From the NCBI GenBank assembly GCA_030536615.1, contig JAUNPQ010000003.1:6484-70483 (forward strand): DNA of 64,000 nucleotides, given 5' to 3'. The notes beneath the pieces were generated by a model. The model ran no database searches, was not told the DNA's origin, and saw only the letters and a list, made by a program, of their open reading frames with translations. The stretch comes from Bacteroidales bacterium. Its GTDB lineage: Bacteria > Bacteroidota > Bacteroidia > Bacteroidales > Muribaculaceae. How positions within the stretch are numbered: position 1 is the first letter of the stretch; the number at the start of each line of letters is the position of its first letter. Shown here one piece after another: positions 10,568-64,000 of this stretch. The position numbers and the translations under genes were made by a program.

Positions 10568-10603
10568 ATATAAAGCAACGAGCAAGGATAAGACAAAAAA
10601 TAT

Positions 10604-11812: not shown

Positions 11813-11849
11813 GTCACATAGCACAGACACTCAGGCGCCGTCACGGACC

Positions 11850-13439
11850 ATGACAGCGCGCAACGCGTTGCTTGCCACCCTGCTTGCCTCAATGGTAAGC
11901 ATTGCCGTAAGCGCACGGCAGCCGCGTCTTGTTGTGGGTATAATGATTGATGGGCTGCAACAGGAGTATATAGACCTCCTGCGTCAGCAGTTCGGTCCTG
12001 ACGGCTTCAACCGTCTGCTCCGCGAGGGAGTGGTGCTTGAAAACGTTGATTACGGCACAAACCTTGACGCAGCGGCAGCTACGGCTGTAATAATGACCGG
12101 CGCCTCACCGTCTGTCAACGGAATAGCCTCATCAGCGCATTTTGACCCGCTTGCCAAACGCAACTACAGTTCACTTCATGATCCGGCCGCCGTTGGCAAT
12201 TACACCACCGAAACCTACTCGCCACGGAATCTGCGCGTATCAACCATTGCCGATGAAGCGCGCATAGCAGGAGCAGGCGTCACTTATGTCTACAGTCTGG
12301 CCCCAGATGCCGAGCAGGCCATCATCATGGCCGGTCATGCCGCAAACAGCGCCGCATGGATAAACAGCGGCACCGGCAACTGGGCAACAACAACATTCTA
12401 CACAGATTTCCCCACATCACTTGTAAACCGCAACCGCATCAATCCTCTTTCGGTGCGTCTTGACAACATGCAGTGGGAGCCGTCAATAGCCGGTGCAGGG
12501 GCTGATTTTCTGCCTGACCACCTTACACGCTACCCGTTCCGTTATACTTTCCCGCGCTCAGATGCGGCCCGTTATGCGGCTTTCAAGGCATCTCCGCTGG
12601 TCAATACGGAAATAGCGCAAACAGCCACAGAACTTCTCACTTCGCTGCAGCTGGGCACGCACGACGGCTCAGACATGCTCAACATTGCATTTACCCTGCA
12701 GCCATACGTATACAGCAAATCGGCCGAAAACCGTTATGAGTTGGTTGACAGCTACATCAAGCTTGATCAGGATATCGCCGGACTGCTGAAAACCATTGAC
12801 ACCCGTGTGGGGCGTGACAATGCCATCATCTACGTGGCCGCCACACCGCCCTCGTCCAGACGCCGGCGTGATGACGCACGCTGGAACATCCCTGTCGGGG
12901 AATTCTCCACACGCAAGGCGGCATCGCTGCTCAATCTCTATCTCATCGCCCTGCACGGTAACGGGGACTGGGTCAAGGCTGTCTCAGACAACCATTTCTA
13001 TCTAAACGCCGACGCCGCCAAAGCCCATAACACCGAGATGCCGCAACTGCGTCGCGAGGTGGCCGAATTCCTCAGCCGCATGTCAGGCGTGGGACGTGCC
13101 ACATCAATTGACGACATCCTTGCCGGGACTGCTACAATTGAAAACGGCGAGGCACTGCGACGCAACACCGTTGCCTCTGCGGCAGGCGATGTCAGAGTTG
13201 ATCTGTTGCCCGGCTGGGAGCTTGTGGACGATTACGGAACCGCCGGGCCAAAAAGCGGAAAGATAAACGTCAATACACTGACAACCGCACCGGCCTACAT
13301 CCTTGCCCCCGACATCACCCCCGAGGTGATCAGAAACGTTGTAGACGCGCGCATCCTTGCCCCGACAATAGCGGGCCGGATGCACATCCGGTCTCCCAAC
13401 GGCGCATCTCTCGCCCCGTTGCGATTCACCGGCAAGTAG
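11850..13439 (+). CDS. Alkaline phosphatase superfamily (PafA-like) protein with an apparently degenerate active site
   Basis: PRLVVGIMIDGL N-terminus and fold landmarks present; nucleophile and most metal-ligand motifs not recognisable; ATG 11850. Confidence 0.7.
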   Translation: MTARNALLATLLASMVSIAVSARQPRLVVGIMIDGLQQEYIDLLRQQFGPDGFNRLLREGVVLENVDYGTNLDAAAATAVIMTGASPSVNGIASSAHFDPLAKRNYSSLHDPAAVGNYTTETYSPRNLRVSTIADEARIAGAGVTYVYSLAPDAEQAIIMAGHAANSAAWINSGTGNWATTTFYTDFPTSLVNRNRINPLSVRLDNMQWEPSIAGAGADFLPDHLTRYPFRYTFPRSDAARYAAFKASPLVNTEIAQTATELLTSLQLGTHDGSDMLNIAFTLQPYVYSKSAENRYELVDSYIKLDQDIAGLLKTIDTRVGRDNAIIYVAATPPSSRRRRDDARWNIPVGEFSTRKAASLLNLYLIALHGNGDWVKAVSDNHFYLNADAAKAHNTEMPQLRREVAEFLSRMSGVGRATSIDDILAGTATIENGEALRRNTVASAAGDVRVDLLPGWELVDDYGTAGPKSGKINVNTLTTAPAYILAPDITPEVIRNVVDARILAPTIAGRMHIRSPNGASLAPLRFTGK

Positions 13440-13503
13440 GACCCGGCAAGCTCCTACCGTTTTTCAAATCAACAGGAATACAAATACATAACACAAAAAT
13501 AAA

Positions 13504-16500
13504 ATGTCATTTACAGGCATACTCAGCAAAATGTTTGGCGACAAATCGAGCCGTGACCGCAAGCGTCTACAGCCAATCGTCAACAAAATCAACAGTCTGC
13601 GTCCGGAAATAGAAAAACTGTCGAACGATGAACTGCGTGCAAAGATAGATGAAGTACGCGCCGACATAGACAGTGCCGTCGCACCACATGAAAAAGCCAT
13701 CGCCGAAATACGCGATAAAGTTGAAAGCGTCCCCTTTGAGGAAAGACAGCCGTTATGGGACGACATAGACAGCCATGAGAAGAAAATACTTGAGGCAATT
13801 GACGAGAAACTCCGCGCCAACCTTGAGACAGTCTTTGCCGTACTGCGCGAAACAGCGGCACGCTTCGCAAAAAATGAGACCATAGAAGTCACCGCCACAC
13901 AGTTTGACCGCGAACTGGCTGCCGAAGGTCGCGATTTCGTAACCATTGACGGTGACAAAGCCTTGTGGAAAAACCACTGGATGGCCGGTGGCAGCGAAGT
14001 GACATGGGACATGGTCCACTATGACGTGCAGCTTATGGGCGGAGTGGTTCTCTATGAAGGAAAAATTGCAGAAATGGCAACCGGTGAGGGTAAGACCCTT
14101 GTCGCCACCCTGCCGGTTTTCCTGCGCTCACTGTCACGCAAGGGTGTGCATGTGGTAACCGTCAACGACTATCTTTCAAAACGTGACTCAGAGTGGATGG
14201 GCCCGCTGTATATGTTCCATGGAGCATCCGTTGACTGCATTGACAAACACCAGCCAAACACTCCTGAACGCCGCAAGGCATACAACTGCGACATCACCTT
14301 CGGCACAAACAACGAGTTCGGCTTTGACTACCTGCGTGACAACATGGCCCTTGATCCCGAAGACATGGTGCAGCGCAAACACTATTTCGCCATTGTGGAT
14401 GAGGTTGACTCCGTACTCATTGATGACGCACGCACCCCTCTCATCATCTCAGGTCCGGTGCCTAAAGGCGATGACCAGTACTTCAATGACTACAAGGGCA
14501 ATGTAGAGAAAGTTGTTCAGGCACAGCGACGCCTTGTGACACAGATACTCTCAGAGGCAAAGACAAAACTGGCCTCCGAGAACAAAGATGACCAGAAAGA
14601 AGGCGCTCTGCTGCTGTTCCGCGCATTCAAGGGCCTTCCCAAGAACGGAGCGCTCATAAAGTTCCTGAGTCAGGAGGGTATGAAGAACATCCTTCTCGCC
14701 ACAGAAGCCAACTACCTCAAGGACGGCGCACGCGAGATGCCGGTGGTCACTGACCCCCTTTACTTTGTCATTGACGAGAAAAACCGCAGTGTTGAGCTTA
14801 CCGACAAAGGCCTTGACGAACTCACCAAAGGCATAAGCGATCCTCAGTTCTTTGTGCTGCCTGACATTGCCGCCCAGCTCTCGGAACTTGAGAACATAGC
14901 TGACCCGACAGAGCGCGCGGCAAAGAAAGACACCCTCATGCAGGACTATGCCGTAAAAGCCGAGCGCGTTCACACAGTGACACAGCTCCTCAAGGCATAT
15001 ACAATGTTTGAAAAAGACGTGGAATATGTCATTGATGACAACAAGATAAAGATTGTTGACGAACAGACGGGCCGCATCATGGAAGGACGCCGCTACAGCG
15101 ACGGCCTGCATCAGGCAATAGAAGCCAAAGAAGGTGTGAAAGTAGAGGCCGCCACACAGACATTCGCCACCATTACCCTACAGAACTACTTCCGCATGTA
15201 CTACAAACTTGCCGGAATGACCGGTACTGCGGAGACAGAGGCCGGCGAGTTCTGGGACATCTACAAACTTGATGTTGTGACAATCCCCACAAACCGTCCC
15301 ATTGCCCGCAAGGACATGAATGACCGCGTGTACCGCACCAAACGCGAGAAATACGCTGCAGTCATCGACGAGATTGTGCGCCTTGTGGGCGAAGGGCGCC
15401 CGGTGCTTGTCGGCACAACATCGGTTGAGATCTCCGAACTTCTCAGCCGCATGCTTGACATGCGCCACATACCCCATAACGTCCTCAACGCCAAACTGCA
15501 CCAGAAAGAGGCGGAGATCGTGGCACATGCCGGACGCACCGGTATAGTCACCATTGCCACCAACATGGCCGGCCGAGGCACCGACATCAAGCTTACACCT
15601 GAAGTCAAAGCCGCAGGCGGTCTGGCAATCATCGGTACAGAACGCCACGAGAGCCGCCGTGTGGACCGTCAGCTGCGCGGACGTGCCGGACGACAGGGAG
15701 ATCCCGGTTCATCAGTGTTCTACGTATCGTTCGAGGACCAGCTGATGCGCGTATATGCCTCTGACCGCATCATGAAGATCCTTGACTCACTGGGCTTCAA
15801 GGAAGGTGAGATGCTTGAGCACAAAATGATCTCCAACTCAATCGAGAAAGCTCAGAAGCGTGTTGAGGAAAACAACTTCGGCATGCGCAAGCACCTGCTT
15901 GATTATGACGATGTCATGAACAAACAGCGCACATACATATACTCGCAGCGCCAGCACGCCCTGAAAGGCGAAAGGATAGGCATAGACATATCAAACATGA
16001 TCTATGACGTCATCGAAAACCTCATAGACACCTATCCCACTGCAGCCGATTTCCCCGACTTCTCGCTTGAACTGATGAAGATCCTTGCCATTGAGCCGGA
16101 GATGACAGAGAAAGAATATGGTGACATGGAAAAGGATGAGAAAGTGACACGCCTGCACGGGCTTGCCATGGAAACCCTCAACCGCAAGAGCGACCGCATC
16201 CGCGAGATCATCATGCCTGTTATCCGTGAGGCCGTTGATGCCGGCGAGACCGGAATCCGCGCTCTCCCCATCACTGACGGCAAACGCATTTTCCGCGTGC
16301 TCTTTGATCTTGAGGAAGCCGTGCGCACCGATGGACGCTCAATAGTTAAAGAATGGCAGAAACGTGTTCTGCTGCTGAATATTGACGAACTCTGGAAAGA
16401 ACATCTCCGCGAACTTGATGATCTGCGCCAGTCTGTGCGCAACGCATCATATGAGCAGAAAGATCCGCTTGTAATCTACAAGGTGGAATCTTTCCATCTC

Positions 16501-50809: not shown

Positions 50810-51709
50810 TCAGTACAATGCCGGGATTATACGTGCGTCATCACTCAGCTTATGCCGGTGTGACAGTGATATCCATTCTGTAGCCACACCAAGCATAAAA
50901 GCATGGGTGATGCGGCGGGACACTATATGTGAGGCTTTTGTGGAGATTATATCCGCATGATAGCCCAGGCGTATGGATGTCCCTCCGAGCCGCAGATCAG
51001 CAGTCAGCATATTGTCCATGCGGAAGTAGTTTCCCCACCAGGCCGGACGCGCCAGTCCATGGGTGTTCCCAAGCCATATCTCATAGTAAAGCTCTCCATA
51101 CTGCGGAGCGAAAAATACGCCGGTCACCGGCAGACGGCACTCATAACGTAATGCCACCGGCAGACGGCCTATGCGCATATTGTAGGCGGCATATGCGTTC
51201 GCGCCAACGGTCCACGCTCCTTTTGCCGATGCCGGATTGTTGCCGTTGCGGGCCATATAGAGCGCTCCTGCCCGTAAAGATGTGCCGGGCCCAATGCCTA
51301 AGGTAAGATTACGGCCGGCACCGATGCTGATGTTCCAGCGACGCATCATTGTCCATGCCGCCTCCAGTTCCAGATTCCACATCACTGCATTGCGCGACAT
51401 GTTCTCGCCATGGTCGGCAATCAGACGTCCGGAGAGTTGCATCATCCATCTTTCAGGGCTGAATGCCATTGCCTGCATGCGCTCGTACATGAATCCCACA
51501 TGCCAGCCGTTATAGTGCAGGGGCGTAAGGTAAGTGTCGGCCATATGGGCCGTTCCTCCTTCAAAGGTATATGCCGACAGCACGGGTCTGACGGTCTGCG
51601 TCTCCTGCCATCCTGAAACGGTTATGCTCTCCTGATCACCGGCACATAGGCCCGAAACGGTGACCAGAGACAGTATCGCCGTAACTAATGCCGCTCTAAA
51701 TATCCTCAT
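50810..51709 (-). CDS. DUF3316-like outer-membrane protein
   Basis: DTYLTPLHYNG, FFAPQYGELYYEI, NNPASAK; ATG 51709. Confidence 0.7.
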   Translation of the reverse strand: MRIFRAALVTAILSLVTVSGLCAGDQESITVSGWQETQTVRPVLSAYTFEGGTAHMADTYLTPLHYNGWHVGFMYERMQAMAFSPERWMMQLSGRLIADHGENMSRNAVMWNLELEAAWTMMRRWNISIGAGRNLTLGIGPGTSLRAGALYMARNGNNPASAKGAWTVGANAYAAYNMRIGRLPVALRYECRLPVTGVFFAPQYGELYYEIWLGNTHGLARPAWWGNYFRMDNMLTADLRLGGTSIRLGYHADIISTKASHIVSRRITHAFMLGVATEWISLSHRHKLSDDARIIPALY

Positions 51710-54443
51710 CTGTAAAAAGTCTTTCCTGTCCGTTAATCTCATCGCGCACCTCCTCATCACTGCGCTCCGGTAGCACCGGCTCGACCTCACGGGGCGCTTC
51801 CTCGGAAACCTCGGGAGCCTCGTCAGTCTCCGGGAGTGGATCAGGCTCGGTTTCAATGACCTCTCCAAGTGCATATGTGGTGAGACGTTTTCCTTTGGCG
51901 GTAAATCTCTTGACACCTATAAATTCAGCCGTGTGGACATCCATAGGATCCCTGAAATCATCAGGAGCGGCAAATGTCACATGAAGGACTGCCTGAGGTG
52001 TGTCAGTAAGAAGGATTATCCGCGACTTCACATTCTCACCTATGAAACGCTGTTTGCGCGCAGAGGCCTCAAAAGCAAAGCGTTTCAGGTAGGGATAGCC
52101 GTTGTCGGCATCAAAAAGCACACATGCGAACACATGGCCGGGTCGGAATTTCTCAATGCGGAGTATGTTGTCCTCATAATGGTTTGTTGCCTCGAACGTT
52201 GAGGTATAGTATTCTCCGTTGTCAAGGACAACAAGCACTTTGTCATCGCTGTTGAACTCGCCGAGGTAGCGTCCGCGTCCGTCATAGTTTATGCGCAGCA
52301 CATCCGGGTCAAACCACACCTCGCGGCCACCGAGAGTGGACATGCCTTTCTCTTTGAGAGAGAAGCGGTGCACCTCATTCTTGGTGACAAGATTGCCCAC
52401 AGATGCACGCCCTTTTATGGCAAGCTTGCTGAAATCAACATCAAACTGCAATGTTTTCAGCCTTTGCTTGGGGCGCAGTGTGACACGCACCACCTCAGCC
52501 TCGCCGTTTGAGTTTGCCGTGAACCATACAATCCGGCTTCCGGGCACAGGATGGTCAGGGGAATCCTGCGTCAGGTTATATTCACGGTCACGGACAACCT
52601 TGTTTATGCGGCAGCGCTTCATCAGATATGGGCCGCCGCGCCCGTTCTGGTATATGACATTATAGACAGTGCGTTCGTCATCCTTGCGGAACACGGCTAT
52701 ATGCAGCACATTCTTACCCACAGACAGTTTGTCTTTGACACGCACCACCTTATAGCGGCCGTCCTTATAGAACACAATGATATCGTCCATCGACGAACAT
52801 GAGCTGATAACCTGCGTGTTGTCATCTTTTTTGAGCGCCGTACCAATGAAGCCCTCCTCGGCGTTGAAATAGAGTTTCTCATTTGCCTCGGCCACATTTG
52901 CTGCCTGAATCGAATCAAAGCTGCGCACAACGGTGTGACGCGGATAGGCATGACCGTACTTCTTCTTCAGACCCTCATACCAGTCAATGGTGTATTCGGT
53001 GAGGTTGGCAAGTTTGTGCTCAATGTCGGCAATGCGGCTATTGTAGTCAGCGATAAGGCGGTCAGCATCCTCGGCGTTGAACTTCAAAATGCGTTTCATG
53101 CGTATTTCGAAAAGCCTCAGTATGTCATCGCGCACCAGCTCACGCACCAGATTTTTCTTTATAGGCTCAAGACGGCTGTCAACATGCATCACGGCCTCTT
53201 CAAGGTCACGGGCCTGCTCATACTCTTTGTCCTTGTATATCCGCTCCTCTATGAAGAATTTCTCAAGCGAGGCAAACAACAGCAGCTCGCGCACTTCATC
53301 GCGCTCTATGAGCAGTTCCTCGCGGAGTATGTTGCGCGTAGTGTCAACGCTGTAGCGCAAAACATCGCTGACCCCGAGGAACACCGGTTTCCTGTCACGT
53401 ATCACGCAGCAGTTAGGCGACACGCTTATCTCGCAGTCAGAGAAAGCATAGAGCGCATCAATACTTTTGTCAGACGATGTTCCGGGAAGCAGGTGCACGA
53501 GTATACGCGGGGTCTCGGCAGTAAGATCCTCAACCTTGCGTATTTTTATCTTGCCTTTCTCATACGCCTTCAGAATGGAATCTATGAGTGTTCCGGTAGT
53601 CTTTCCATAGGGAATCTCCGTGATTGCCAGCGTGCGGTTGTCAACTTTCTCAATTTTGGCACGTATCTTCAGCGCACCGCCGCGTTCACCGTCATTATAC
53701 CGGCTCACGTCTATGAATCCGCCCGTGGGAAAATCCGGGTAAAGCACGAAGTCCTCACCGCGCAGATATGCCACTGCAGCATCAAGTATCTCATTGAAAT
53801 TATGCGGCAATATCTTTGAGGACAGACCCACGGCTATACCCTCGGCTCCCTGGGCCAGCAACAACGGGAATTTTGCCGGCAATGTCACCGGTTCTTTCTT
53901 GCGTCCGTCATAGCTGAGGGTCCACTCCGTCACCTTGGGGTTGTAGAGGACATCGAGCGCGAAAAGCGACAGGCGCGCCTCAATGTAACGTCCCGCGGCT
54001 GCCGATGCGCCGGTAAGGATATTGCCCCAGTTTCCCTGTGTCTCCACAAGCAGTTCTTTCTGTCCCAGCTGCACAAGGGCATCGTTTATCGAGGCATCGC
54101 CATGAGGATGGTACTGCATGGTGTTGCCCACAATGTTGGCAACCTTGTTGAACCGACCGTCATCAAGAGTCTTCATTGAGTGCAGTATGCGCCGCTGCAC
54201 AGGCTTGAGGCCGTCATCTATATGCGGCACGGCACGCTCCAGAATGACATACGAGGCATATTCCAGAAACCAGTTCTGATACATGCCCTGCAGGCGGTAG
54301 CGTGACACAGCACCATCTGTGGAGTACGGACGCGCTGCCGTCTCTACGGTGTCCGCATCACTTGCCGCGGTGCCGGAATCGTTGTCATCGTATATGCCCT
54401 CCGGGGTCATCTCATCGTCTATGTGATTGAATTGGTCGTCCAT
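51696..54443 (-). CDS. parC: DNA topoisomerase IV subunit A
   Basis: DGLKPVQRRIL, YHPHGD, AAGRYIEARL (catalytic Tyr); promoter element at 54469-54476. Confidence 0.9.
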   Translation of the reverse strand: MDDQFNHIDDEMTPEGIYDDNDSGTAASDADTVETAARPYSTDGAVSRYRLQGMYQNWFLEYASYVILERAVPHIDDGLKPVQRRILHSMKTLDDGRFNKVANIVGNTMQYHPHGDASINDALVQLGQKELLVETQGNWGNILTGASAAAGRYIEARLSLFALDVLYNPKVTEWTLSYDGRKKEPVTLPAKFPLLLAQGAEGIAVGLSSKILPHNFNEILDAAVAYLRGEDFVLYPDFPTGGFIDVSRYNDGERGGALKIRAKIEKVDNRTLAITEIPYGKTTGTLIDSILKAYEKGKIKIRKVEDLTAETPRILVHLLPGTSSDKSIDALYAFSDCEISVSPNCCVIRDRKPVFLGVSDVLRYSVDTTRNILREELLIERDEVRELLLFASLEKFFIEERIYKDKEYEQARDLEEAVMHVDSRLEPIKKNLVRELVRDDILRLFEIRMKRILKFNAEDADRLIADYNSRIADIEHKLANLTEYTIDWYEGLKKKYGHAYPRHTVVRSFDSIQAANVAEANEKLYFNAEEGFIGTALKKDDNTQVISSCSSMDDIIVFYKDGRYKVVRVKDKLSVGKNVLHIAVFRKDDERTVYNVIYQNGRGGPYLMKRCRINKVVRDREYNLTQDSPDHPVPGSRIVWFTANSNGEAEVVRVTLRPKQRLKTLQFDVDFSKLAIKGRASVGNLVTKNEVHRFSLKEKGMSTLGGREVWFDPDVLRINYDGRGRYLGEFNSDDKVLVVLDNGEYYTSTFEATNHYEDNILRIEKFRPGHVFACVLFDADNGYPYLKRFAFEASARKQRFIGENVKSRIILLTDTPQAVLHVTFAAPDDFRDPMDVHTAEFIGVKRFTAKGKRLTTYALGEVIETEPDPLPETDEAPEVSEEAPREVEPVLPERSDEEVRDEINGQERLFTDEDI

Positions 54444-54678
54444 AACATCATGCCTTGAAAACAGTTTACAAATTTAGCAAATTTTCCGGGCTATGACAAA
54501 AGTTTCTCACTCAATCACCCATTCACTCATTTTGACCTGATACTGACACCGCCCTCTCACATCCCGTCACCCAAGTCCACGGCCACCGGCATACCAAACA
54601 AACGTGCCACATCCCCTCATGATTCAGCAAAGGGTGTGACACGCCGTAATCAGTCTCAAATAATTGAACGCGTCTCTC

Positions 54679-55776
54679 TCAGTGCAGGCGCTTGCTTGTG
54701 CGCACAGTGCCGTCGCTCATAACACTGCGTTCAATCACTATCTGTCCGAAGTGTGGCTCGGCTACAGCACATCCGTAAAGGTCATACAGTTCAGTCGAGA
54801 CCACTGTTGCCTTGTCGGCGGCAATGTCATCGACGCCGGCAATGGCCCTGACATTGACAAATTTGCTCCATCCGGTGGCCGTGCGGTAGTCCTCGATGGC
54901 CTCCTGGGGCACAACAAGTGTGGTCGTGGCATATTGCGCGTCACTGAAAGTATCTTCAAGGATGGTGGGGGGCAAGACGCTCTCGCTCACAAATTCCACC
55001 AGACGATTGCCGCCACTATAACTTCCCGCTCCATGAAACTCTCTGCCTGATGTCAAGCCTTTCCGCTCACCGTTCTTTTTGGCTTTCAGAACAATACGTG
55101 TCAGGCCCGACAGGCCGTCAAAAGCCCTAAAACCCAGCATTACTTCTTCCGGAATGATTATCTCCTTGACCTTGTTGCTATAAAAAGACGCTGTGGAGAT
55201 CGCCATACCACAATCCTCGCTGAACGCGATTTCCTCAATGTCACATCTTATATACGCCTGAGGCATTAAGAGCCCACCCCGTTTAGGAAAATACAGTCTC
55301 TTGATCGGACATGTGTCAAAAGCCCTGGAGGAAATTTCCAGATAACCATTCCTTGCAAAATTAATTTCTTCAAGCGAAAGACATCTGAAAAATGCATGCC
55401 CGTCAATTGTTCTGAGACTTTCCGGGAAACTGATTTCCTCAATATTACTAAAACTGAATGCCTCTGAATTTATTCGTTCCAGAGTATTAGGCAGTGTTAT
55501 GGTCTTGATGCCGGTCTCATAAAACGCTTTCTGGCCAATCTGAGTGACTTTATACGATTTCCCGTCAATAGTCACTTCCTCAAGTACCTCTATATCATAA
55601 ATTTTCTGTTCACCTGCCGGAGATAATCCTGTGCAGACAGCCGCCGTATTGTCCTTCTCATTGATAGTATATCTGCAATCACCCACCGTAACTTCGCCGA
55701 CAGACCGCATCTGGGCTGAAACAGCCATCGTCATGGCCATCAAAGACATCATTGTAAATATCTTTTTCATAATCAT
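54679..55776 (-). CDS. BspA-type leucine-rich repeat surface protein with a T9SS-like tail
   Basis: Signal peptide; IGQKAF, LPNTLERINSEAF, FPESLRTIDGHAF repeats; tail YDLYG...SDGTVRTSK. Confidence 0.8.
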   Translation of the reverse strand: MIMKKIFTMMSLMAMTMAVSAQMRSVGEVTVGDCRYTINEKDNTAAVCTGLSPAGEQKIYDIEVLEEVTIDGKSYKVTQIGQKAFYETGIKTITLPNTLERINSEAFSFSNIEEISFPESLRTIDGHAFFRCLSLEEINFARNGYLEISSRAFDTCPIKRLYFPKRGGLLMPQAYIRCDIEEIAFSEDCGMAISTASFYSNKVKEIIIPEEVMLGFRAFDGLSGLTRIVLKAKKNGERKGLTSGREFHGAGSYSGGNRLVEFVSESVLPPTILEDTFSDAQYATTTLVVPQEAIEDYRTATGWSKFVNVRAIAGVDDIAADKATVVSTELYDLYGCAVAEPHFGQIVIERSVMSDGTVRTSKRLH

Positions 55777-55982
55777 TTCACTAAAACATTTATACTGTCA
55801 CAAACTTTTTTATCCACAATCAGAATTATCGAATAAATGCCATTCGGCTTCCCATTAAAATCAAGGGAGTAGGAGTTTGAGGCCTCAGAGGTGGCATTGT
55901 TGAAGGTGTGGATGCCGGTTGCTCCAAAGCTGTCAAGGCCGCTCAGAAGCAGGATGCTGAATAGGATTTTTAGCGGTTTCAT
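55773..55982 (-). pseudogene. 69-aa relic: signal-peptide-like start joined to a T9SS C-terminal-domain-like end
   Basis: MKPLKILFSILLLSG start; LDFNGKPNGIYSIILIVDKKVCDSINVLVK end; no mature domain between them. Confidence 0.45.
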
Positions 55983-56173
55983 GGTTAGTGGGTTTTATTG
56001 AAAATGTGGGTCTATTATCAAGGATTTGAGGTGATGGCGTCGCTATTCCGCAAAGATAAGTGATTTAGATTCAATCTGCAACAAAAAGTGAAAATATTTT
56101 AATACTGTAAAAAAACACAATCTGATTCATATAAGGAGGTGGTAAAAAATTATTATCAAACATACTCTAAAAC

Positions 56174-56307
56174 GAAACTGCATCGCAAATCTGATTATTG
56201 CGATGCAGCCCCTTATATTGTCTGTGCCGCCCGGCTGGCAGCGGTTTGGCTTACTGTGCCTGCTCTATTGTCACGGCACGGTCAAGAGCAACATATTTCT
56301 CGCCGAG
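56174..56307. repeat. Left direct repeat (134 bp): displaced copy of the ompA 3' end and terminator
   Basis: Matches 59194-59327 with one mismatch (56228 C vs 59248 T); minus strand 56310-56251 encodes DLGEKYVALDRAVTIEQAQ-stop. Confidence 0.95.
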
Positions 56308-56355
56308 ATCTCGATGTTTTCCCGTAATCGTCCCCTCTATCTCGCCGATTTTGTG

Positions 56356-56363
56356 TATCTTTG
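56356..56363 (+). promoter_or_regulatory. TAnnTTTG promoter element for the Abi operon
   Basis: TATCTTTG about 120 nt upstream of the Abi GTG; no clear -33 TTTG. Confidence 0.6.
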
Positions 56364-56370
56364 CAGATAT

Positions 56371-56419
56371 AAAAAACTAAACCCGATAGCTTGACGAGTC
56401 AGGGGCTACCGGGAATCAA
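56371..56419 (-). ncRNA. Candidate ~48-nt small RNA (putative antitoxin of the Abi HEPN protein)
   Basis: Follows a full-consensus minus-strand promoter; hairpin CCCGGUAGC-CCC-UGA-CUCG-UCA-A-GCUAUCGGG then UUUAGUUUUUU; a G-U pair forms only on the minus strand. Confidence 0.55.
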
Positions 56420-56424
56420 CACTA

Positions 56425-56456
56425 CAAAGGTAGTGCTTTTTGTTGATTAAAACAAA
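56425..56456 (-). promoter_or_regulatory. Full-consensus Bacteroidetes promoter TTTG-N20-TACCTTTG on the minus strand
   Basis: CAAAGGTA at 56425-56432 and CAAA at 56453-56456, 20-nt spacer. Confidence 0.65.
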
Positions 56457-56484
56457 TCCCGGCTCAAAAAGATTACGAAGAAAG

Positions 56485-57174
56485 GTGAAATTCACTGAAT
56501 TTCAAGCGATATTATCCACCGAGAGGCTGCAACGATACCTCACTGCCTGTGGCGGCAACACCAAAAAGACGATGACACTATATCGCCTTAACCTCAATCT
56601 GTCGCAAGAGGTTTTTACTCTGTTGAGTTGCTTTGAGGTAGCTGTCAGGAACGCCATGGACAATATTCTCGTTCAGCGGCTTGGTAATGATTGGCTGCGC
56701 GATGCAATAGAGCCAGGCGGCATATTCGATATTCCGGGTTGCCGCGACAGCGCGAACATTATCCGCAAGGCTTACCGCAGATTGCAACGCGACAACAGTT
56801 ACACCCACACCAAACTCCTTGCTGAAATGGAGTTTGGTGTTTGGAAATATATGTTTGCCAATCCGCAGTATCGCGCCGTTGGGCGCAGTCTGCTCGCTAT
56901 TTTCCCGAACAAACCCCGTTCCACCGCACAATGCCAGTATAACAACACTTTCATGTTCAACGAGCTTGACGGCATCAACATACTGCGCAACCGCATCGCC
57001 CACCATGAGCCGATATGTTTTGCCCTCCGGCAACCTGTAATCGGCACATCATATATCCTCAACGCATATCAAAAACTGCATACTCTCTTTATGTGGATGG
57101 GAGTTGACAGCCATTCGCTGCTCTACGGTCTCGACCACGTTCAGCAAGTCTGCAACAAAATCAACCGGCTATGA
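56485..57174 (+). CDS. Abi family (Abi_2/AbiF-like) HEPN-domain protein, putative RNase toxin or phage-defence effector
   Basis: LSTERLQRY, FEVAVRN, FGVWKYMF and HEPN R-x4-H motif LRNRIAHHEPI; GTG 56485 preferred (TTG 56440 possible). Confidence 0.8.
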   Translation: MKFTEFQAILSTERLQRYLTACGGNTKKTMTLYRLNLNLSQEVFTLLSCFEVAVRNAMDNILVQRLGNDWLRDAIEPGGIFDIPGCRDSANIIRKAYRRLQRDNSYTHTKLLAEMEFGVWKYMFANPQYRAVGRSLLAIFPNKPRSTAQCQYNNTFMFNELDGINILRNRIAHHEPICFALRQPVIGTSYILNAYQKLHTLFMWMGVDSHSLLYGLDHVQQVCNKINRL

Positions 57175-58745
57175 ATCGCTTTATTTTAATACTTATATTC
57201 TTAATAGGTCTTTCCACTCCGGTTGTTGCTGAATTGCCTAATGGTTTTCGGATTGAATCTATTGGCAAGCCTGTCAAAGAATTTCAACTTGATTCCATAA
57301 AGTTGACCTCGCCTCTTAACTATTATCTCTCACGAGCATGGGTAAGGGTCAGCGGCAAGAACAGACATTGGGCTGATATATCGACCTCAAAATTTTTCAA
57401 TGACCCCAATGCGCCTGATGAAACAGTCGATGATGATTTGCGCAATTATGTACTTAATGAGACTATCGACGCCATTGTGTGCTATCGTGATTCTGTGGCT
57501 GCACTTGTTACTCACACCGATGGAGAGGACTTGTATATGCTCAACTATTGTTGGATTGAGGATGACCGATGGGTTAACGGAGGCCAAGGAATGGCAGACA
57601 ACCTGAGTGAAGCGGAAGAAAAATTATTGACAGATTTGCCATTCCATTATAAAAATCTGCCGAGAATAGCACAAATAAATAATTTACCGACCGACATATA
57701 TCCTTTTGTTGATTTTCTTTCTCATGTCGATACAAACCCCGAACAGTTTATGCTCGAAATGCTTCGCTTGCATAAATTAGTCATAAACGGAGAATATCAC
57801 AGGCGAAAGATTTCATGGGATATGCTTAAACGCCTCATTGCATTACCCGATTTTGCCGAGACCACCGGCACAATCTTTATGGAATTGCCTTCATGGTGTC
57901 AGCCTAAAATGGATGAATTTATGAATTCGGACACCATTAACCACAACTTGATACTACAAATTTTTCGCGAGGAACAGCCTCTCGGGTGGTGGGATAGCGG
58001 AGAATTTGAGTTTATTCGCGATTTATGGCATCTTAACCAAACGCTGCCTCAAGACAAACGTATTAAAATCATCTTGGCAGACTACCAAATACCGTATTCA
58101 CTCGCTACCAATAGGAAGGATTTTCAGGAAGCGGAAGACCGCAATACCCACATGGCTACCATCATTGCGAATACTATCAACTCCAATGTTGACAAGCGGA
58201 GCAACCTATTCCTTGTCGGCTGCGCACACGCCTATAAATCCCATCAGGCAGGCTTTGCGTCTTCTGCGGCAGGACGTGATGCGGCCTTGACAGTCGGAGC
58301 ACAACTAACCGCGGACCTCGGAGAAAACAACGTGTTTACAATATTTCAGCATGTTTTGCCGGGAGATAACAGTGGCAATAATAAATCGCCAATTCGCGGA
58401 GGCGTTTTTGACAAGGCATTTGAAGCAATTGGAAACCGCCCGTTAGGTTTTTGTCTTGCGGATTCACCTTTCGGCAGTGAGCCGTTTGATGGCATCTATG
58501 AGATAAAATATAATATTGCCACTGGCAGCTATTCAGACAATTTTGACGGTTATCTTTTCCTTTGTCCTATTGCTGACGAACCGAAAGCGAGACCATTGAC
58601 AGAAATATTTGACGATGAATTTGTAGCAGAAATCAAACGCCGTGCGTCAGCAATGGGAACCGAAAATGTAAGGCAGATTTGGTTTGGGAAAGCCGCTCTT
58701 GAGTTAACGAAAGAATACATTATCCAAATCTTAACAACAGAGTAA
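57171..58745 (+). CDS. Exported hypothetical protein, 524 aa; C-terminal half possibly ChaN/EreA/TraB-like fold
   Basis: Signal peptide; VINGEYH, IFMELP, RNTHMA, LVGCAHA motifs; ATGA overlap with the Abi stop. Confidence 0.6.
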   Translation: MNRFILILIFLIGLSTPVVAELPNGFRIESIGKPVKEFQLDSIKLTSPLNYYLSRAWVRVSGKNRHWADISTSKFFNDPNAPDETVDDDLRNYVLNETIDAIVCYRDSVAALVTHTDGEDLYMLNYCWIEDDRWVNGGQGMADNLSEAEEKLLTDLPFHYKNLPRIAQINNLPTDIYPFVDFLSHVDTNPEQFMLEMLRLHKLVINGEYHRRKISWDMLKRLIALPDFAETTGTIFMELPSWCQPKMDEFMNSDTINHNLILQIFREEQPLGWWDSGEFEFIRDLWHLNQTLPQDKRIKIILADYQIPYSLATNRKDFQEAEDRNTHMATIIANTINSNVDKRSNLFLVGCAHAYKSHQAGFASSAAGRDAALTVGAQLTADLGENNVFTIFQHVLPGDNSGNNKSPIRGGVFDKAFEAIGNRPLGFCLADSPFGSEPFDGIYEIKYNIATGSYSDNFDGYLFLCPIADEPKARPLTEIFDDEFVAEIKRRASAMGTENVRQIWFGKAALELTKEYIIQILTTE

Positions 58746-58808
58746 ATAAGCGTCTTTTCGGTCCACATACTCGCTCCATAATTTTGTGGCACCACAACCC
58801 ACACGATT

Positions 58809-59087
58809 ATGGAGCAGCTTATTTTTAGTTCTGTCGAAATTCTACCTAACGCCCGGACCTCGATAACCTTTACCGAGCCTAAGCCCGTTTTCAAGGAGGA
58901 TGGCGAGAACTTTCTACTTGACAACGACCTCGCAAGGTATTTCCTCGGCGTATGCCAGAAGTTGGCTCGGTCAATCCTCACCCTGCTTTGCGGTCAAGCA
59001 TTTTGCTTTCGCCGTGTCAATGATCCGTTTTATGTTATCCGGCAACAAAGGGTCAACGGATTTTTGTTTCACCCAAACAATTCTTAA
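58809..59087 (+). CDS. Hypothetical 92-aa ORF, possibly a remnant
   Basis: ATG-started ORF inside the island; no family confidently recognised. Confidence 0.25.
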   Translation: MEQLIFSSVEILPNARTSITFTEPKPVFKEDGENFLLDNDLARYFLGVCQKLARSILTLLCGQAFCFRRVNDPFYVIRQQRVNGFLFHPNNS

Positions 59088-59193
59088 AATACCAAAGGTC
59101 AATTTGCGTGACCATTGGTATATCAGGAAAATAGTAACGCGCACAAATGTCACAAGACAATATATTGTGCGCGAGCCAGATTTAGGGGAAAAT

Positions 59194-59327
59194 GAAACTG
59201 CATCGCAAATCTGATTATTGCGATGCAGCCCCTTATATTGTCTGTGCTGCCCGGCTGGCAGCGGTTTGGCTTACTGTGCCTGCTCTATTGTCACGGCACG
59301 GTCAAGAGCAACATATTTCTCGCCGAG
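59194..59327. repeat. Right direct repeat (134 bp): functional ompA 3' end and terminator
   Basis: Matches 56174-56307; contains the ompA stop (59271-59273) and the hairpin at 59198-59228. Confidence 0.95.
59198..59228 (-). terminator. ompA intrinsic terminator (duplicated at 56178-56208)
   Basis: CTGCATCGCAA / TTGCGATGCAG 11-bp stem, 9-nt loop, U-rich tail on the minus strand. Confidence 0.7.
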
Positions 59328-60488
59328 GTCACAGAGGTTGCCGGCGTTGATGGTTGCTGTGAGCTGTGACTCTGGAACACCGAGCTTGACAAGCTGTTTC
59401 TGCACGCCGTTCACGCGGTTGTGGCGCAGACGCGTGTTGATCTGGTCATTACCAGTGTAGTTGTCGGCCCATCCGGTGAGGATGTAGTGGTTGTTGGGGT
59501 TATCTTTCATCACTTCTGCGCATGCACCGAGAATGAGAACGTCTTTCTTGGTGAGTTTGAAGATGTTGATGGGATAGTAGATGGTTGCCAGAGGAGCGGG
59601 CTTCGGCTTCTCAACGGGACGGTTGAGGGCGTCCTGAAGCTGGTTCTCAAGGTCGGCGATACGGCCTTCGGCAGCCTCGAGGCGTGCACGCAGTGCATCG
59701 CAGTTCTCGGCGGGAGGACATACGGGAACAATGGGAGCGCTCCACTCGCGTTTTGCAAAGAGGTAAGTCACACCAAGATAAGCGGCAAGGTCATGCGAGG
59801 TGCGGTTCCATGCGTCACCTTCCTCATCCTTGTGGTTGTCTATGCCGCTATAACGTATGTCAAGTGACAACTGAACCTGTTTGCTGACGTTGTAGGTGTT
59901 GATAAGACCGGCACGGAATGTGAGGACGCGGTCTTTTGTGCGGTTCCAGCCAAGATCCTCGAAATTATCATTGCCAAGATCCTTGAACTGACGGCAGAAT
60001 GTCCAGTAACCGCCACCACCGGCATAGAAGATGGCGTTGTATTTGCGCCCGGGATGATATCCGCACCACCAGTTGGTAAGATTGATAAGAGCATCGCCGA
60101 CCGGACCGATCTGATTGAATTTCTGATTGTATTTGCCATTGATCTTGTCAGGACGGCAGTCTTCAGTGCGTACATCTGAGAAACCTTTGCAGACAAGGAA
60201 GTTGGCACCCAGACGAAGTCCGACAATGGGTGAGAACCATTTGCCGACATATATACCTGCGGCAGGACCGAAACGGTCCCATGTGCTGCGCTCAGAGTCA
60301 CCGTGACTGAAATAGATGTTGGCGCCACCTTCAGCAGTGATGAACCAGTTGTCTTTGAAGCGGTTGAAAAGGTAACCCTGCGATGGATCCTCCACATATG
60401 TGATCTCCTGGGGTTGAGCTTCCTGGCAGAAAGCGTTGACGCCTACGAAGAGAGCACACGCCATTGTCAAAAGTGTACTTTTTTTCAT
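59271..60488 (-). CDS. ompA: OmpA family major outer-membrane protein (beta-barrel plus peptidoglycan-binding domain)
   Basis: Signal peptide, NWFITAEGG, C-terminal OmpA domain GWADNYTG...N-RL...R. Confidence 0.88.
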   Translation of the reverse strand: MKKSTLLTMACALFVGVNAFCQEAQPQEITYVEDPSQGYLFNRFKDNWFITAEGGANIYFSHGDSERSTWDRFGPAAGIYVGKWFSPIVGLRLGANFLVCKGFSDVRTEDCRPDKINGKYNQKFNQIGPVGDALINLTNWWCGYHPGRKYNAIFYAGGGGYWTFCRQFKDLGNDNFEDLGWNRTKDRVLTFRAGLINTYNVSKQVQLSLDIRYSGIDNHKDEEGDAWNRTSHDLAAYLGVTYLFAKREWSAPIVPVCPPAENCDALRARLEAAEGRIADLENQLQDALNRPVEKPKPAPLATIYYPINIFKLTKKDVLILGACAEVMKDNPNNHYILTGWADNYTGNDQINTRLRHNRVNGVQKQLVKLGVPESQLTATINAGNLCDLGEKYVALDRAVTIEQAQ

Positions 60489-60758
60489 AGAAATTTTATT
60501 TTTAACGTTTTGAAATTATGCTTATTTGGTGGTTGTCAGGTTGTTAGTTCGCAGAAAGGCAGTAGGAATATGCCTCACTCAGGTTATTTAGCCGCTAAGT
60601 TACTACTTTTTTCTCATATATCTTTATCTTTTTTAATTTTTTTTGTCATAAAATGCATTTCTATCTCTTTAGGGCACAATTTCGTGGCACAATGCGTGTG
60701 GCGTACATCTTCCGACTGACCGGATTCATGGGGGGGAGGTGAATGGCCCTCAAAAGCA

Positions 60759-60790
60759 TTTGGCATTGCTCCCGCTTATTTGTATCTTTG
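60759..60790 (+). promoter_or_regulatory. Full-consensus promoter TTTG-N20-TATCTTTG for the prolyl oligopeptidase operon
   Basis: TTTG at 60759-60762; TATCTTTG at 60783-60790. Confidence 0.65.
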
Positions 60791-60818
60791 CAAAAAATAT
60801 CATATATTTTTGACAAGA

Positions 60819-62945
60819 ATGAACAGAATTGTTATACTGGCAGCCGCAGCAGGCTGCACACTTGCCATGAACGGTAAAAAACTTCATTATCCCATTCCTC
60901 CGAAGGATACAACAGTTGACACTTATTTCGGCCACAAAGTAGCCGATCCTTATCGCCCGCTTGAGGATGACACTGCGGCAACAACTCTGAAATGGGTAGA
61001 AGCCGAGAATGCCGTGACACGCGGCTACCTGGACGCCATTCCTTTCCGCGCAGACATCCACAAACGCCTCACAGAGCTGAACAACTATGCCAAATACGGG
61101 CTGCCGGTGAAATATCCCGACGGCAAATATTATTTTTTCACCAACAACGGTCTCCAGAACCAATCCGTACTTTACCGTTCCCTGACTCCCGACGGAAGCA
61201 ACGCCGAGATGGTTCTTGACCCGAACACGCTCAGCGCTGACGGAACAGTTGCCCTCAAAGGCATATGGATGAGCCCCGACGGCAAAAATCTGGGCTACAC
61301 CATATCACGCAGCGGCAGTGACTGGGAAGAGATTTTTATCCTTGATCCCATCACACTTCAACTCCGTGATGATCACATCCGCTGGGCCAAGTTCACCGGC
61401 ATTGCATGGGACGGTGACGGTTTCTACTACAGCGCATATGACGTCCCTGAGGCAGGCAAGGAATTCAGCAACGCCAATGAATATCATAAAATCTATTTCC
61501 ATCGCCTCGGCACGCCGCAATCAGCAGACACGGTGGCTTTCGAGGACAAGAATGCCCCGCTCCACTTCCACCATGCATGGACTGATGACAAAGCCAAGGC
61601 TCTCGTAGTGTCAATCGGTGGACAGGGAAATGGAAATGCGCTGAAAATAAAGCATCTGCATCAGCCGCAGTCACAGTGGATCACAATCACTGACAGTCAG
61701 GAAGACAATATAAATGTTCTTGACATCATAGGTGACACCGTGTATATTCTCACAAGCAAGGATGCTCCCAATTACCGCATTGTGGCAGCTCCGCTGAGTG
61801 ATCCACGCCCGGAAAACTGGCGCGATATAATTCCGGAAGGGAAGAGTGTTCTTGTGGGAGCAGACATCTCCGGCAACGACATCATAGTCACATACCTTGA
61901 GGATGCATCACATCATGCCTATCTGCACAGACTCTCCGACGGCAAACTGCTCCACAAGGTCAAACTGCCCTCCATAGGAAGTGTCTCATTCTCCACATCG
62001 GCAAAATCGCCCGAGGTCATGTACCGGTTCGGCTCTTTCACTGATCCCGGAGCGCTGTACACCTACAACAAAGACACCGACACTGCAACCCTGCTGCGCC
62101 ACACCGACCTCAAAGGCATTGACAGCGAAGACTATATTACCGAACAAGTGTTCTACACCAGCAAAGACGGCACAAAAGTACCTATGTTCCTCACATATAA
62201 GAAAGGTCTGCAGCGCAACGGCAAGAACCCCGTATATCTCTACGGCTACGGCGGCTTCAACATCTCTCTTGAGCCATCATTCTCAGCCAACCGTATGTTC
62301 TGGCTTGAAAACGGAGGCATATATGCCCAGACAAATCTGCGCGGCGGCGGAGAATATGGCGAGGCATGGCACGTGGCCGGCACAAAAATGCAGAAACAGA
62401 ATGTGTTCGATGACTTTATAGCGGCTGCCGAGCACCTTATCGCCGAGGGCTATACCACCCCTGACCTTCTCACAATTGAGGGCGGCTCAAACGGAGGCCT
62501 GCTTGTAGGCGCCGTGGTGAACCAGCGTCCCGAACTGTTCCGCGTCGCAATTCCCCGCGTGGGAGTGATGGACATGATGCGCTATCACCTCTTCACCATA
62601 GGCTGGAACTGGGCCCATGACTATGGAACATCGGCTGACTCTCCCGAAATGGCTGAGTATCTTCTGGGCTATTCCCCGCTCCACACCATCAAGAGCGGCA
62701 AGGACGTGCAATATCCGTCAATCCTGGTCACCACCGCTGATCACGATGACCGCGTTGTTCCGGCACATTCATTCAAATATGCCGCAGCTCTGCAGGCGGC
62801 CCAGACCGGTGACAACCCCAAGCTCATACGCATAGACTCCAAAGCCGGACACGGAGGCGGCAAACCTGTTGCCAAGATCATTGATGAATGGGCTGACATC
62901 TATTCATTCGTATTCAAGAATCTTGGCCTGACTCCCGGCAAATGA
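60819..62945 (+). CDS. Prolyl oligopeptidase (S9A)
   Basis: VADPYRPLED, YGYGGF, GGSNGGLL, TADHDDRV, AGHGGG; ATG 60819. Confidence 0.93.
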   Translation: MNRIVILAAAAGCTLAMNGKKLHYPIPPKDTTVDTYFGHKVADPYRPLEDDTAATTLKWVEAENAVTRGYLDAIPFRADIHKRLTELNNYAKYGLPVKYPDGKYYFFTNNGLQNQSVLYRSLTPDGSNAEMVLDPNTLSADGTVALKGIWMSPDGKNLGYTISRSGSDWEEIFILDPITLQLRDDHIRWAKFTGIAWDGDGFYYSAYDVPEAGKEFSNANEYHKIYFHRLGTPQSADTVAFEDKNAPLHFHHAWTDDKAKALVVSIGGQGNGNALKIKHLHQPQSQWITITDSQEDNINVLDIIGDTVYILTSKDAPNYRIVAAPLSDPRPENWRDIIPEGKSVLVGADISGNDIIVTYLEDASHHAYLHRLSDGKLLHKVKLPSIGSVSFSTSAKSPEVMYRFGSFTDPGALYTYNKDTDTATLLRHTDLKGIDSEDYITEQVFYTSKDGTKVPMFLTYKKGLQRNGKNPVYLYGYGGFNISLEPSFSANRMFWLENGGIYAQTNLRGGGEYGEAWHVAGTKMQKQNVFDDFIAAAEHLIAEGYTTPDLLTIEGGSNGGLLVGAVVNQRPELFRVAIPRVGVMDMMRYHLFTIGWNWAHDYGTSADSPEMAEYLLGYSPLHTIKSGKDVQYPSILVTTADHDDRVVPAHSFKYAAALQAAQTGDNPKLIRIDSKAGHGGGKPVAKIIDEWADIYSFVFKNLGLTPGK

Positions 62946-63892
62946 CAGTAAGGCACATAATCTTTCCGGCAGCGGCAGCCATATTGATGGCCGTTGTGAT
63001 GCAGAGCTGTTTTACCGGGGTGGAGAGCACACCACGCATCACAGAGCGTGACATCACTCGCCGCAATGTCGTTGTGTCAGCCGAGGAAAAATTCCTCTCC
63101 GATATACATCCCCAGATGCCTTCCCACTGGATGTCGGGCAAAAAGTTCTATGTGACAGACAACCGTATATCACTGATTTTCACACCCGGTGTAAACGGAG
63201 CGACACAGAACGTTCCTGATTCTCTGGCAGGAACTCTGCTGAACCTTGACAACGTGGCCTACGGCACAGGCGTGACCGGTGCCGATGAGGTCCGTCTCAC
63301 ATTCACAGACCACGCAGGGCGCAAGCTGGTATATCTGCCGGGCATCAGCCGCAAATCCTTTGCTGCTGACTCCGCTTTCCAGATTCCGTTCACTGTTGAC
63401 ATGGACATTGTCCGGAACGTAAGCCGCCGCCTTTCCGGCAACACCTATTGGCTGCTCACCCCCAGACGCTTTCATGAGGACGGCCATGAAAGCGCAGGTC
63501 TGAGGTACGTGCCGGTGACAATTATGGATGTGGTCCCGGGAAATGACGTCAACCCGCTGCGCGTCAGGTTCACCGAGAAAGATGCCGCCGATACACTCTC
63601 GGTGTTCATAACCGTCGGGTCAGGGCGCAGGGCGACACGCAATTTCAACAAGCTTTTTTCATTTGCCAACCCGCGTGACCGCTATCCTGCCATCACTGAC
63701 AAGACATGGAATGACATCATGCACTCACAGATCAGCACCGGGATGACCCCTGACGAATGCCGTCTGGCCCTCGGTGCCCCGGATGAATATCTGCACATAC
63801 CCACAACTGCCGGTATGGTGGAACGCTGGACCTATGGAGACGGCACCTACCTGTTCTTTGAGGACGGTGTGCTGGCCCGATTCAGGCGCTGA
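62942..63892 (+). CDS. Hypothetical lipoprotein with a C-terminal SmpA/BamE-like motif
   Basis: Lipobox MQSC; GMTPDECRLALGAP...ERWTY...LFFEDG. Confidence 0.6.
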   Translation: MTVRHIIFPAAAAILMAVVMQSCFTGVESTPRITERDITRRNVVVSAEEKFLSDIHPQMPSHWMSGKKFYVTDNRISLIFTPGVNGATQNVPDSLAGTLLNLDNVAYGTGVTGADEVRLTFTDHAGRKLVYLPGISRKSFAADSAFQIPFTVDMDIVRNVSRRLSGNTYWLLTPRRFHEDGHESAGLRYVPVTIMDVVPGNDVNPLRVRFTEKDAADTLSVFITVGSGRRATRNFNKLFSFANPRDRYPAITDKTWNDIMHSQISTGMTPDECRLALGAPDEYLHIPTTAGMVERWTYGDGTYLFFEDGVLARFRR

Positions 63893-63923
63893 ATCCAAGC
63901 CACACTCAAACCACAGAAAAAGC

Positions 63924-64000
63924 ATGAAACTTGTATTTTTAGGTACCGGCACATCAACAGGCGTGCCACAGATCAGATGCCGGTGTTCAGTGTGCACCTC
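63924..64000 (+). CDS. MBL-fold metallo-hydrolase (PhnP-like), 5' part only
   Basis: MKLVFLGTGTSTGVPQIRCRCSVCT; runs off the window edge. Confidence 0.8.
   Translation, partial: MKLVFLGTGTSTGVPQIRCRCSVCT

Follow-up and report, generated by a model that had tools for sequence, protein, structure and literature searches.

A prophage-derived islet carrying an abortive-infection gene, and an orphaned ompA 3′ end, in the strain-variable ompA-parC interval of a mouse-gut Muribaculaceae genome

The ompA gene of a mouse-gut bacterium of the family Muribaculaceae (Bacteroidales; assembly GCA_030536615.1, a draft of 2.33 Mb in 114 contigs) is followed by a small island of foreign DNA and by a second copy of its own 3′ end. 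The window analysed here is the 64,000-nt stretch at positions 6,484 to 70,483 of the forward strand of contig JAUNPQ010000003.1, and coordinates given without a locus name refer to it. A repeat search of the window found the direct repeat 56169-56310 and 59189-59330, 142 nt long, 98% identical and spaced 3,020 nt apart, with three mismatches (56172/59192, 56249/59269 and 56308/59328). Only these two copies are present in the draft genome, of which this is the sole multi-kb local direct repeat. On the minus strand each copy contains 19 codons (DLGEKYVALDRAVTIEQAQ), a stop codon, a 3′ untranslated region (UTR) and a terminator whose hairpin folds at about -23 kcal/mol (z-scores -7.5 and -8.0) and shows compensatory changes between strains. 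The right repeat is the functional 3′ end, UTR and terminator (hairpin 59198-59228) of the gene for a 405-aa OmpA-family outer-membrane protein (59271-60488, minus strand; called as 397 aa in other assemblies). The left repeat is an orphaned ompA 3′ end, with codons at 56254-56310, the stop at 56251-56253 and the hairpin at 56178-56208 (minus strand); the first of its 19 codons is GAT, that of the right copy GAC, and its base 56249 is private, differing from the right copy and from all three other strains compared below. The initial annotation of this DNA was accurate on the near-identical repeats (one differing base in 56174-56307, extension to 142 bp with three mismatches) and on their content, including the encoded peptide, the stop and terminator and the GAT/GAC difference at 56308/59328. 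Its name for the gene holds in the sense of an OmpA-family (PF00691-type) Muribaculaceae protein and not in that of an E. coli-type OmpA.

The DNA between the repeats is a small prophage-derived islet of about 2.9 kb with an abortive-infection gene. It begins with the last six codons (LDVFP-stop; 56310-56327, plus strand) of a phage gene of 80 aa that breaks off where the left repeat adjoins. The promoter and leader region follows on the same strand (56356-56457), and alignment and folding delineate in it a TAnnTTTG-type -7 box (56356-56363), a leader hairpin (56382-56413) and a small terminator-like hairpin (56420-56435). The leader was found in 79 of 301 Muribaculaceae species genomes, which represent 22 of 35 genera, at identities of 80-96% that far exceed those of the adjoining genes; its structure consists of an invariant bulged hairpin of 13 bp, a loop that varies and the small terminator-like hairpin. 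It has no Rfam match, and an Rfam search of 55500-60800 returned nothing credible. An Abi_2 homologue lies 3′ of the leader in 19-20 of 29 loci, and the leader stands without one in G008 (L017), in G003 (L021) and on contig C20 of the same genome (53200-53284).

The first cargo gene encodes a protein of 229 aa (56485-57174, plus strand), with GTG at 56485 as its likely start; its longest open reading frame (ORF) begins with TTG at 56440, and homologues are called as 229 aa. Its match to the Pfam family Abi_2 (PF07751; 32.7 bits against a cut-off of 25.6), the PADLOC matches to PD-T4-5 (2e-11) and AbiD (6e-6) and an RNRIAH (Rx4H) motif in the translation place it, as a prediction from sequence, among the Abi_2 (AbiD/AbiF-like HEPN) abortive-infection proteins. 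The stop codon of this gene is overlapped by 4 nt by the second one (57171-58745, plus strand), whose product of 524 aa has a signal peptide and a predicted erythromycin-esterase/ChaN-like fold. This protein has no Pfam, NCBIfam, PADLOC or PHROG match. Its AlphaFold model, built on 38 homologues, reached a pLDDT of 85.7, and Foldseek matched the model to EreC, BcR135, ChaN, RRSP and HopBA1 with a probability of about 1, with TM scores of only 0.2-0.57 and identities of 8-15%. These matches agree with the motifs GE.H (G207, E208, H210) and GC.H (G350, C351, H353), which are invariant in the alignment of the protein. The model describes a putatively secreted, hydrolase-like protein that is not a recognised defence component. 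The term "defence cassette", used in the initial annotation, fits the Abi_2/HEPN gene and does not extend to the 524-aa signal-peptide protein, which matches nothing in the defence library. The 235 homologues of the 524-aa protein come, where source names are given, from Muribaculaceae or Duncaniella, and none was found in IMG/VR. The names given as sources of homologues also assign the bacterium to Muribaculaceae. In another Muribaculaceae genome an 82%-identical homologue lies between uvrA and valS without Abi_2 (L122:10001-11704), and the pairing of Abi_2 with the 524-aa gene is therefore lineage-specific; G202 (L250) is another genome that has it. Neither OmpA (405 aa) nor the 524-aa protein nor the leucine-rich repeat (LRR) protein described below gave a match in exact look-ups.

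A long hairpin with a T-run (58773-58815, plus strand; -22.6 kcal/mol, z -4.8), probably the operon terminator, stands behind the cargo. It is followed by a degraded remnant of a portal-like gene (58809-59022, plus strand), in which codons 1-33 are joined to codons ~99-136 of a phage protein of 436-447 aa; the frame of this remnant (ORF92) extends to 59087, and full-length copies of the gene are present in other loci. The portal-like protein has a weak PHROG portal match (E 4e-5), no Pfam match and no PDB sequence match. In phages a hairpin of the 58773-58815 type holds the portal start codon; it is kept, with changed arms, in C95, L017 and L128 and also in IMG/VR phages, and a query containing it matched 26 of the 301 family genomes, in several genera. 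The next 37 nt (59023-59059) match nothing that was compared. The last 129 nt before the right repeat (59060-59188) are the "Type-1" downstream flank of ompA, 97.7% identical to that of the island-free strain L130; neither the viral loci nor 300 other genomes of the family gave a match to this flank.

Several comparisons show that the two edges come from a phage. The segment 56310-56327 corresponds to the terminal part of the 80-aa gene that precedes the portal slot in the prophage of G051 (L165) and in six IMG/VR loci. The closest homologues of the cassette align with the window from exactly 56310/56312 to 58908 or 58760, at a nucleotide identity of 86% (L124-L126) or 83% (L127-L129); upstream of the cassette, from the same start base, all six have phage sequence and not ompA, and L124-L128 run leftward into the 80-aa phage gene. 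The viral comparison, which comprised 80 IMG/VR loci, gave matches at 56311-56370 and 58745-59000 only; the repeat, the 129-nt flank, the leader and the two cargo genes had no match among them, and IMG/VR does not contain the 29-mer that is conserved in the ompA end. The island edges are remnants of a widespread Muribaculaceae prophage and stem from its variable gene slot, directly before the portal gene. The conserved pieces flanking the cassette had also been considered as one small ORF, which was wrong: one is the 3′ terminus of the 80-aa gene, the other the 5′ portion of the portal gene.

In the window the slot houses the leader together with Abi_2 and the 524-aa gene; the intact prophage has a different pair of genes there, between the 80-aa gene and the portal hairpin. 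That prophage, in G051, sits elsewhere in its genome and not at ompA, and its portal-like gene is accompanied by a terminase-like gene (so called from a P-loop motif seen by eye), an Amidase_2 gene, a gene for a tape-measure protein of 1503 aa and an integrase-like gene, the last adjoining a gene that was read by eye, from its N-terminus, as prfB (release factor 2). As a family these prophages, for which L165 (G051:C5:20966-37571) is the reference locus and which are also represented by window 58745-59022 and G000 C95:417-577, are widespread in Muribaculaceae, siphovirus-like and unannotated. The portal-like protein has more than 3,200 homologues and belongs to no Pfam family; 184 IMG/VR contigs were counted for it. 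Its start codon is sequestered by the conserved hairpin, both arms of which change together between copies.

Some loci of this family are arranged in less simple ways. The portal-upstream element occurs in tandem in L124 (2524-2682 and 5054-5210) with different small genes between, the promoter and leader are joined straight to a portal remnant in G008 (L017:1500-1720), as if the slot were empty, and in G151 (L138/L162, G151:C2) the portal gene is present twice within a distance of 1.8 kb, once with a frameshift. Such arrangements may represent decayed prophage fragments in tandem, or else an array of cassette type. An integron-like cassette array, considered in view of the repeated element of L124 and the empty slot of G008, was set aside, tandem or decayed prophage fragments being simpler.

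The history of the locus is best read from conspecific strains, which were reached only through the 397-aa call of the OmpA gene and its 90% cluster; the latter contains three near-identical 397-aa proteins from other assemblies. One of the conspecific metagenome contigs, L132, has the order ompA, one repeat, small-ORF region, LRR_5 gene and parC. Its reverse complement is colinear with the window in two alignments, in which 9644-10060 corresponds to 55894-56310 and 9918-14723 to 59189-64000, and the overlap of the two is the single repeat copy. L132 is therefore an exact empty site, with one repeat joined to both outer flanks, relative to which the inserted DNA of the window amounts to exactly one copy of the repeat and 2,878 nt more; the Logan contig L133 agrees with it. 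The older cargo, which adjoins ompA directly in this strain, is contiguous with the left repeat in the window, the flank there being of the L132 type. In L130, ompA and one repeat are followed by the 129-nt flank shared with the window, then by unrelated genes (a 347-aa gene and a 1101-aa DUF7619 gene) and parC. L134, from a sister lineage of about 90% identity, has parC 486 nt after ompA and no cargo between.

The initial annotation had proposed a comparison of the ompA-parC interval across related genomes for empty sites and alternative cargo, and this comparison yielded an empty site (L132), alternative cargo (L130) and an interval with none (L134). Counting the window, four states of the interval are known: that of the window, the LRR gene only, the 347-aa and 1101-aa genes, and nothing. 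On the right, all strains diverge at the first bases past the ompA terminator; on the left, homology stops at 54522 for L130 and 54526 for L134, about 80 nt upstream of parC, and that between the window and L130 picks up again at 59060. Because the boundaries are common and at least four alternative states exist, the ompA-parC interval is a sharply bounded strain-variable hotspot. In the window it spans 54523-59188 and holds the island, the left repeat and the older cargo, to the exclusion of the right repeat and ompA; its GC content is 40-47% against 51-53% in the flanks, and the identity of the flanks between strains is mosaic, as is typical of a recombining population.

The older cargo consists of a gene for a BspA-type LRR_5 protein (54679-55776, minus strand; Pfam LRR_5, E 7e-27) and a 69-aa signal-peptide ORF (55773-55982, minus strand), and parC lies beyond it at 51696-54443 (minus strand). 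The 69-aa ORF overlaps the start of the LRR gene by 4 nt, its L132 counterpart, read directly from the sequence, has 37 codons only, and the LRR protein may have lost its signal peptide to this separate ORF. On the side of ompA that faces away from the island the neighbour is a prolyl oligopeptidase gene. Between the prolyl oligopeptidase gene and ompA, L134 carries an 872-aa DUF6443 (RHS-associated) gene and four small genes (L134:5258-9805), and the upstream side of ompA is therefore variable too. The ompA 3′ UTR and terminator are hypervariable, with about 16 differences in 80 nt between window 59189-59265 and L130, L132 and L134, in strains that are otherwise 97% identical, and compensatory changes preserve both hairpins.

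We favour, at a probability of roughly 55%, the reading that the island is the product of homology-anchored recombination, with ompA as the anchor and one illegitimate junction, which left an orphaned ompA 3′ end behind. The incoming DNA would have had the form ompA 3′ end, terminator, 129-nt flank and phage remnant, and would have paired with the resident ompA end in general recombination requiring no integrase. A circularised fragment could have entered by one crossover of the Campbell type; alternatively, one homologous crossover could have been combined with one illegitimate end-join, the process called homology-facilitated illegitimate recombination. By either route the resident ompA end and the genes downstream of it would be displaced intact and a 142-nt direct repeat would be left behind. 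Two stacked cargo sets would result, the older one (small ORF and BspA-like LRR gene) behind the orphaned ompA end, and the newer one a decayed prophage fragment from the slot between the 80-aa phage gene and the portal gene, which would have brought the promoter, the leader, Abi_2 and the 524-aa gene. We infer both the route and its direction.

Two features of the locus are those expected of such a displacement. The orphaned ompA 3′ fragment is followed by the former downstream genes, the small ORF and the LRR gene, as they are arranged in L132; and one junction lacks significant homology, since at 56310/56311 the phage-type and ompA sequences share at most 2 nt. Capture by homologous recombination had been the fallback of the initial annotation, and it is the reading favoured here. 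Through the same repeats RecA could presumably delete the island again, and a precise excision, which the initial annotation had expected, appears plausible from the repeat sequences. Most likely, then, we are dealing with an ordinary recombination product in a strain-variable hotspot and with no new kind of mobile element.

Several points weigh against this origin. The full donor allele, in which ompA, the flank and the phage remnant would be joined with no orphan copy, was not observed among the strains compared, L130 sharing its first 129 nt only. The UTR/terminator allele common to the two repeat copies differs by about 20% from those of L130 and L132, and the donor and the recipient must therefore have had the same allele, or later gene conversion homogenised the copies. 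The duplication of a gene 3′ end and its terminator around phage-derived DNA is the classic footprint of insertion by an integrase. Finally, illegitimate recombination is rare.

The main alternative, which we regard as possible though unlikely, is that the island is a decayed site-specific element. A temperate phage or satellite whose attP carried a replacement ompA 3′ end would have integrated into ompA and later lost its integrase and most of its genome; the two repeats would be attL and attR, and a short arm and a selected Abi_2 cassette would be all that remains. The direct repeats do rebuild the 3′ end and terminator of the target gene, single-repeat empty sites exist (L132, L133), the island edges are phage-derived, and the internal deletion in the portal remnant shows that decay took place. 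No recombinase was found at an edge, however, nor natural termini recurring with the same att. The absence of an integrase, noted already in the initial annotation, was borne out: searches of the island ORFs with Pfam, NCBIfam, PADLOC and PHROGs found no recombinase, and the nearest PF00589 gene is about 61 kb off on the same contig, serine recombinases not having been searched genome-wide. Moreover, the remnant stems from the region of the packaging module and not from an att-proximal arm, and the deletion would have had to stop precisely where the left repeat borders the island. The supposed phage arm of 129 nt is present in L130 without a second repeat or phage DNA, and absent from the 80 viral loci and the 300 family genomes; the lack of the ompA core 29-mer in IMG/VR and the different integration site of the intact relative in G051 point the same way.

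The proposal of the initial annotation that the ompA 3′ end is an attB-like hotspot is likewise not supported, since this end does not behave as a recurrent attB. A second copy of the ompA end was not found in 81 loci, namely those of 14 genus relatives, 64 metagenomic ompA loci and three conspecific contigs. Among the species representatives of the genus (OmpA identity 48-73%) and 80 metagenomic ompA loci (OmpA diverged by at least 27%, i.e., at most 73% identical) there was no conserved ompA/parC synteny, no second ompA end and no cargo, and a comparison at this distance told nothing about the ompA-parC interval. Nor do the island edges behave as the termini of an element, the left one truncating a phage gene and the 129 nt on the right being common to the island-free L130.

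A further reading, in which the ompA end with its terminator and the conserved flanks of the phage portal slot would together act as portable homology arms and the Abi_2 cassette would shuttle between infecting Muribaculaceae phages and the chromosomal hotspot without an integrase, with reversible RecA-mediated pop-out through the 142-nt repeats, seems to us improbable. We consider it very unlikely that the arrangement is an assembly or population artefact, in which an empty-site chromosome and a separate 3,020-bp circle, or a mixture of strains, were threaded through the shared repeat. The genome is indeed a draft in 114 contigs, and two Logan contigs of SRR24915796, which agree with the window at 100% identity, break off at k-mer branch points 33-35 nt into the repeat, so that short k-mers cannot resolve the path; both repeat variants exist in that sample, from which the genome itself may derive. 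The junctions are individually real, however: that of the repeat with the island start occurs in L023, that of the flank with the repeat in L121 and L132, and that of the 129-nt flank with the repeat and ompA in L130. The bases that distinguish the copies are 137 nt apart, within one 150-nt read, and a 3-kb circle without a replication gene would be unlikely to persist. An in-situ tandem duplication of the ompA end and downstream DNA, one copy of which then diverged or was replaced, would yield direct repeats with one illegitimate junction, but it is hardly credible and was rejected in its simple form, the flanks past the two repeats being unrelated from the first base after the terminator and each matching a different strain allele (L130 and L132).

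On the recombination reading, the locus offers a clean, dated example of how small defence cargo may accumulate in gut Bacteroidales without dedicated mobility genes: the exact empty site, three alternative alleles and the orphaned gene end, in which the route of recombination is recorded, come together in one case. Through this locus a chromosomal Abi_2 module is also connected with the variable slot of a Muribaculaceae phage family that is widespread and as yet undescribed. Annotators may take it as a warning that a duplicated gene end around foreign DNA alone implies neither an att site nor a satellite element.

Prophages and islands that integrate at the 3′ end of a protein-coding gene and supply a replacement end are known, such as e14 and phage 21 in icd of E. 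coli. Here, too, repeats of the target-gene 3′ end keep the gene intact and the inserted DNA is phage-related; unlike those prophages, the island has no integrase and no attP-bearing relative was found for it in our comparisons, and one of its edges is an internal phage gene cut short, the other a flank common to an uninserted strain. Variable hotspots for defence and surface genes between core genes are a concept from pangenome studies of E. coli and Pseudomonas. The ompA-parC interval resembles them in its sharp common boundaries at two conserved genes, its unrelated cargo including a defence gene and its low GC content, but it is small (0.3-4.9 kb), and one of its states keeps a duplicated gene end that records the stacking. 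The cassette itself is reminiscent of phage morons, which are promoter-gene-terminator units between structural genes: it has its own promoter and terminator, lies in a variable slot upstream of the portal gene and has a typical Abi content. In contrast to morons, its carrier is a dead chromosomal fragment, and this exact combination of leader, Abi_2 and 524-aa gene was found in none of the 80 IMG/VR relatives that were examined.

The orphaned end has its counterpart in the effector-immunity loci of rhs genes and type VI secretion systems, in which orphaned 3′ ends occur and the downstream genes are kept; these were explained by homology-facilitated illegitimate recombination (Kirchberger et al. 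2017, PMC5361080, citing de Vries and Wackernagel 2002 and Prudhomme et al. 2002 for this process). Our case differs in that the conserved gene belongs to the OmpA family and is not a toxin gene, that no more than 19 codons are orphaned, and that a phage remnant with an Abi gene enters in one displacement with no array. In both, on the recombination reading of the island, new cargo stands behind a conserved gene that serves as a homology anchor, the old 3′ end and the old downstream genes are pushed downstream and retained, no integrase is present, and alternative alleles exist among strains.

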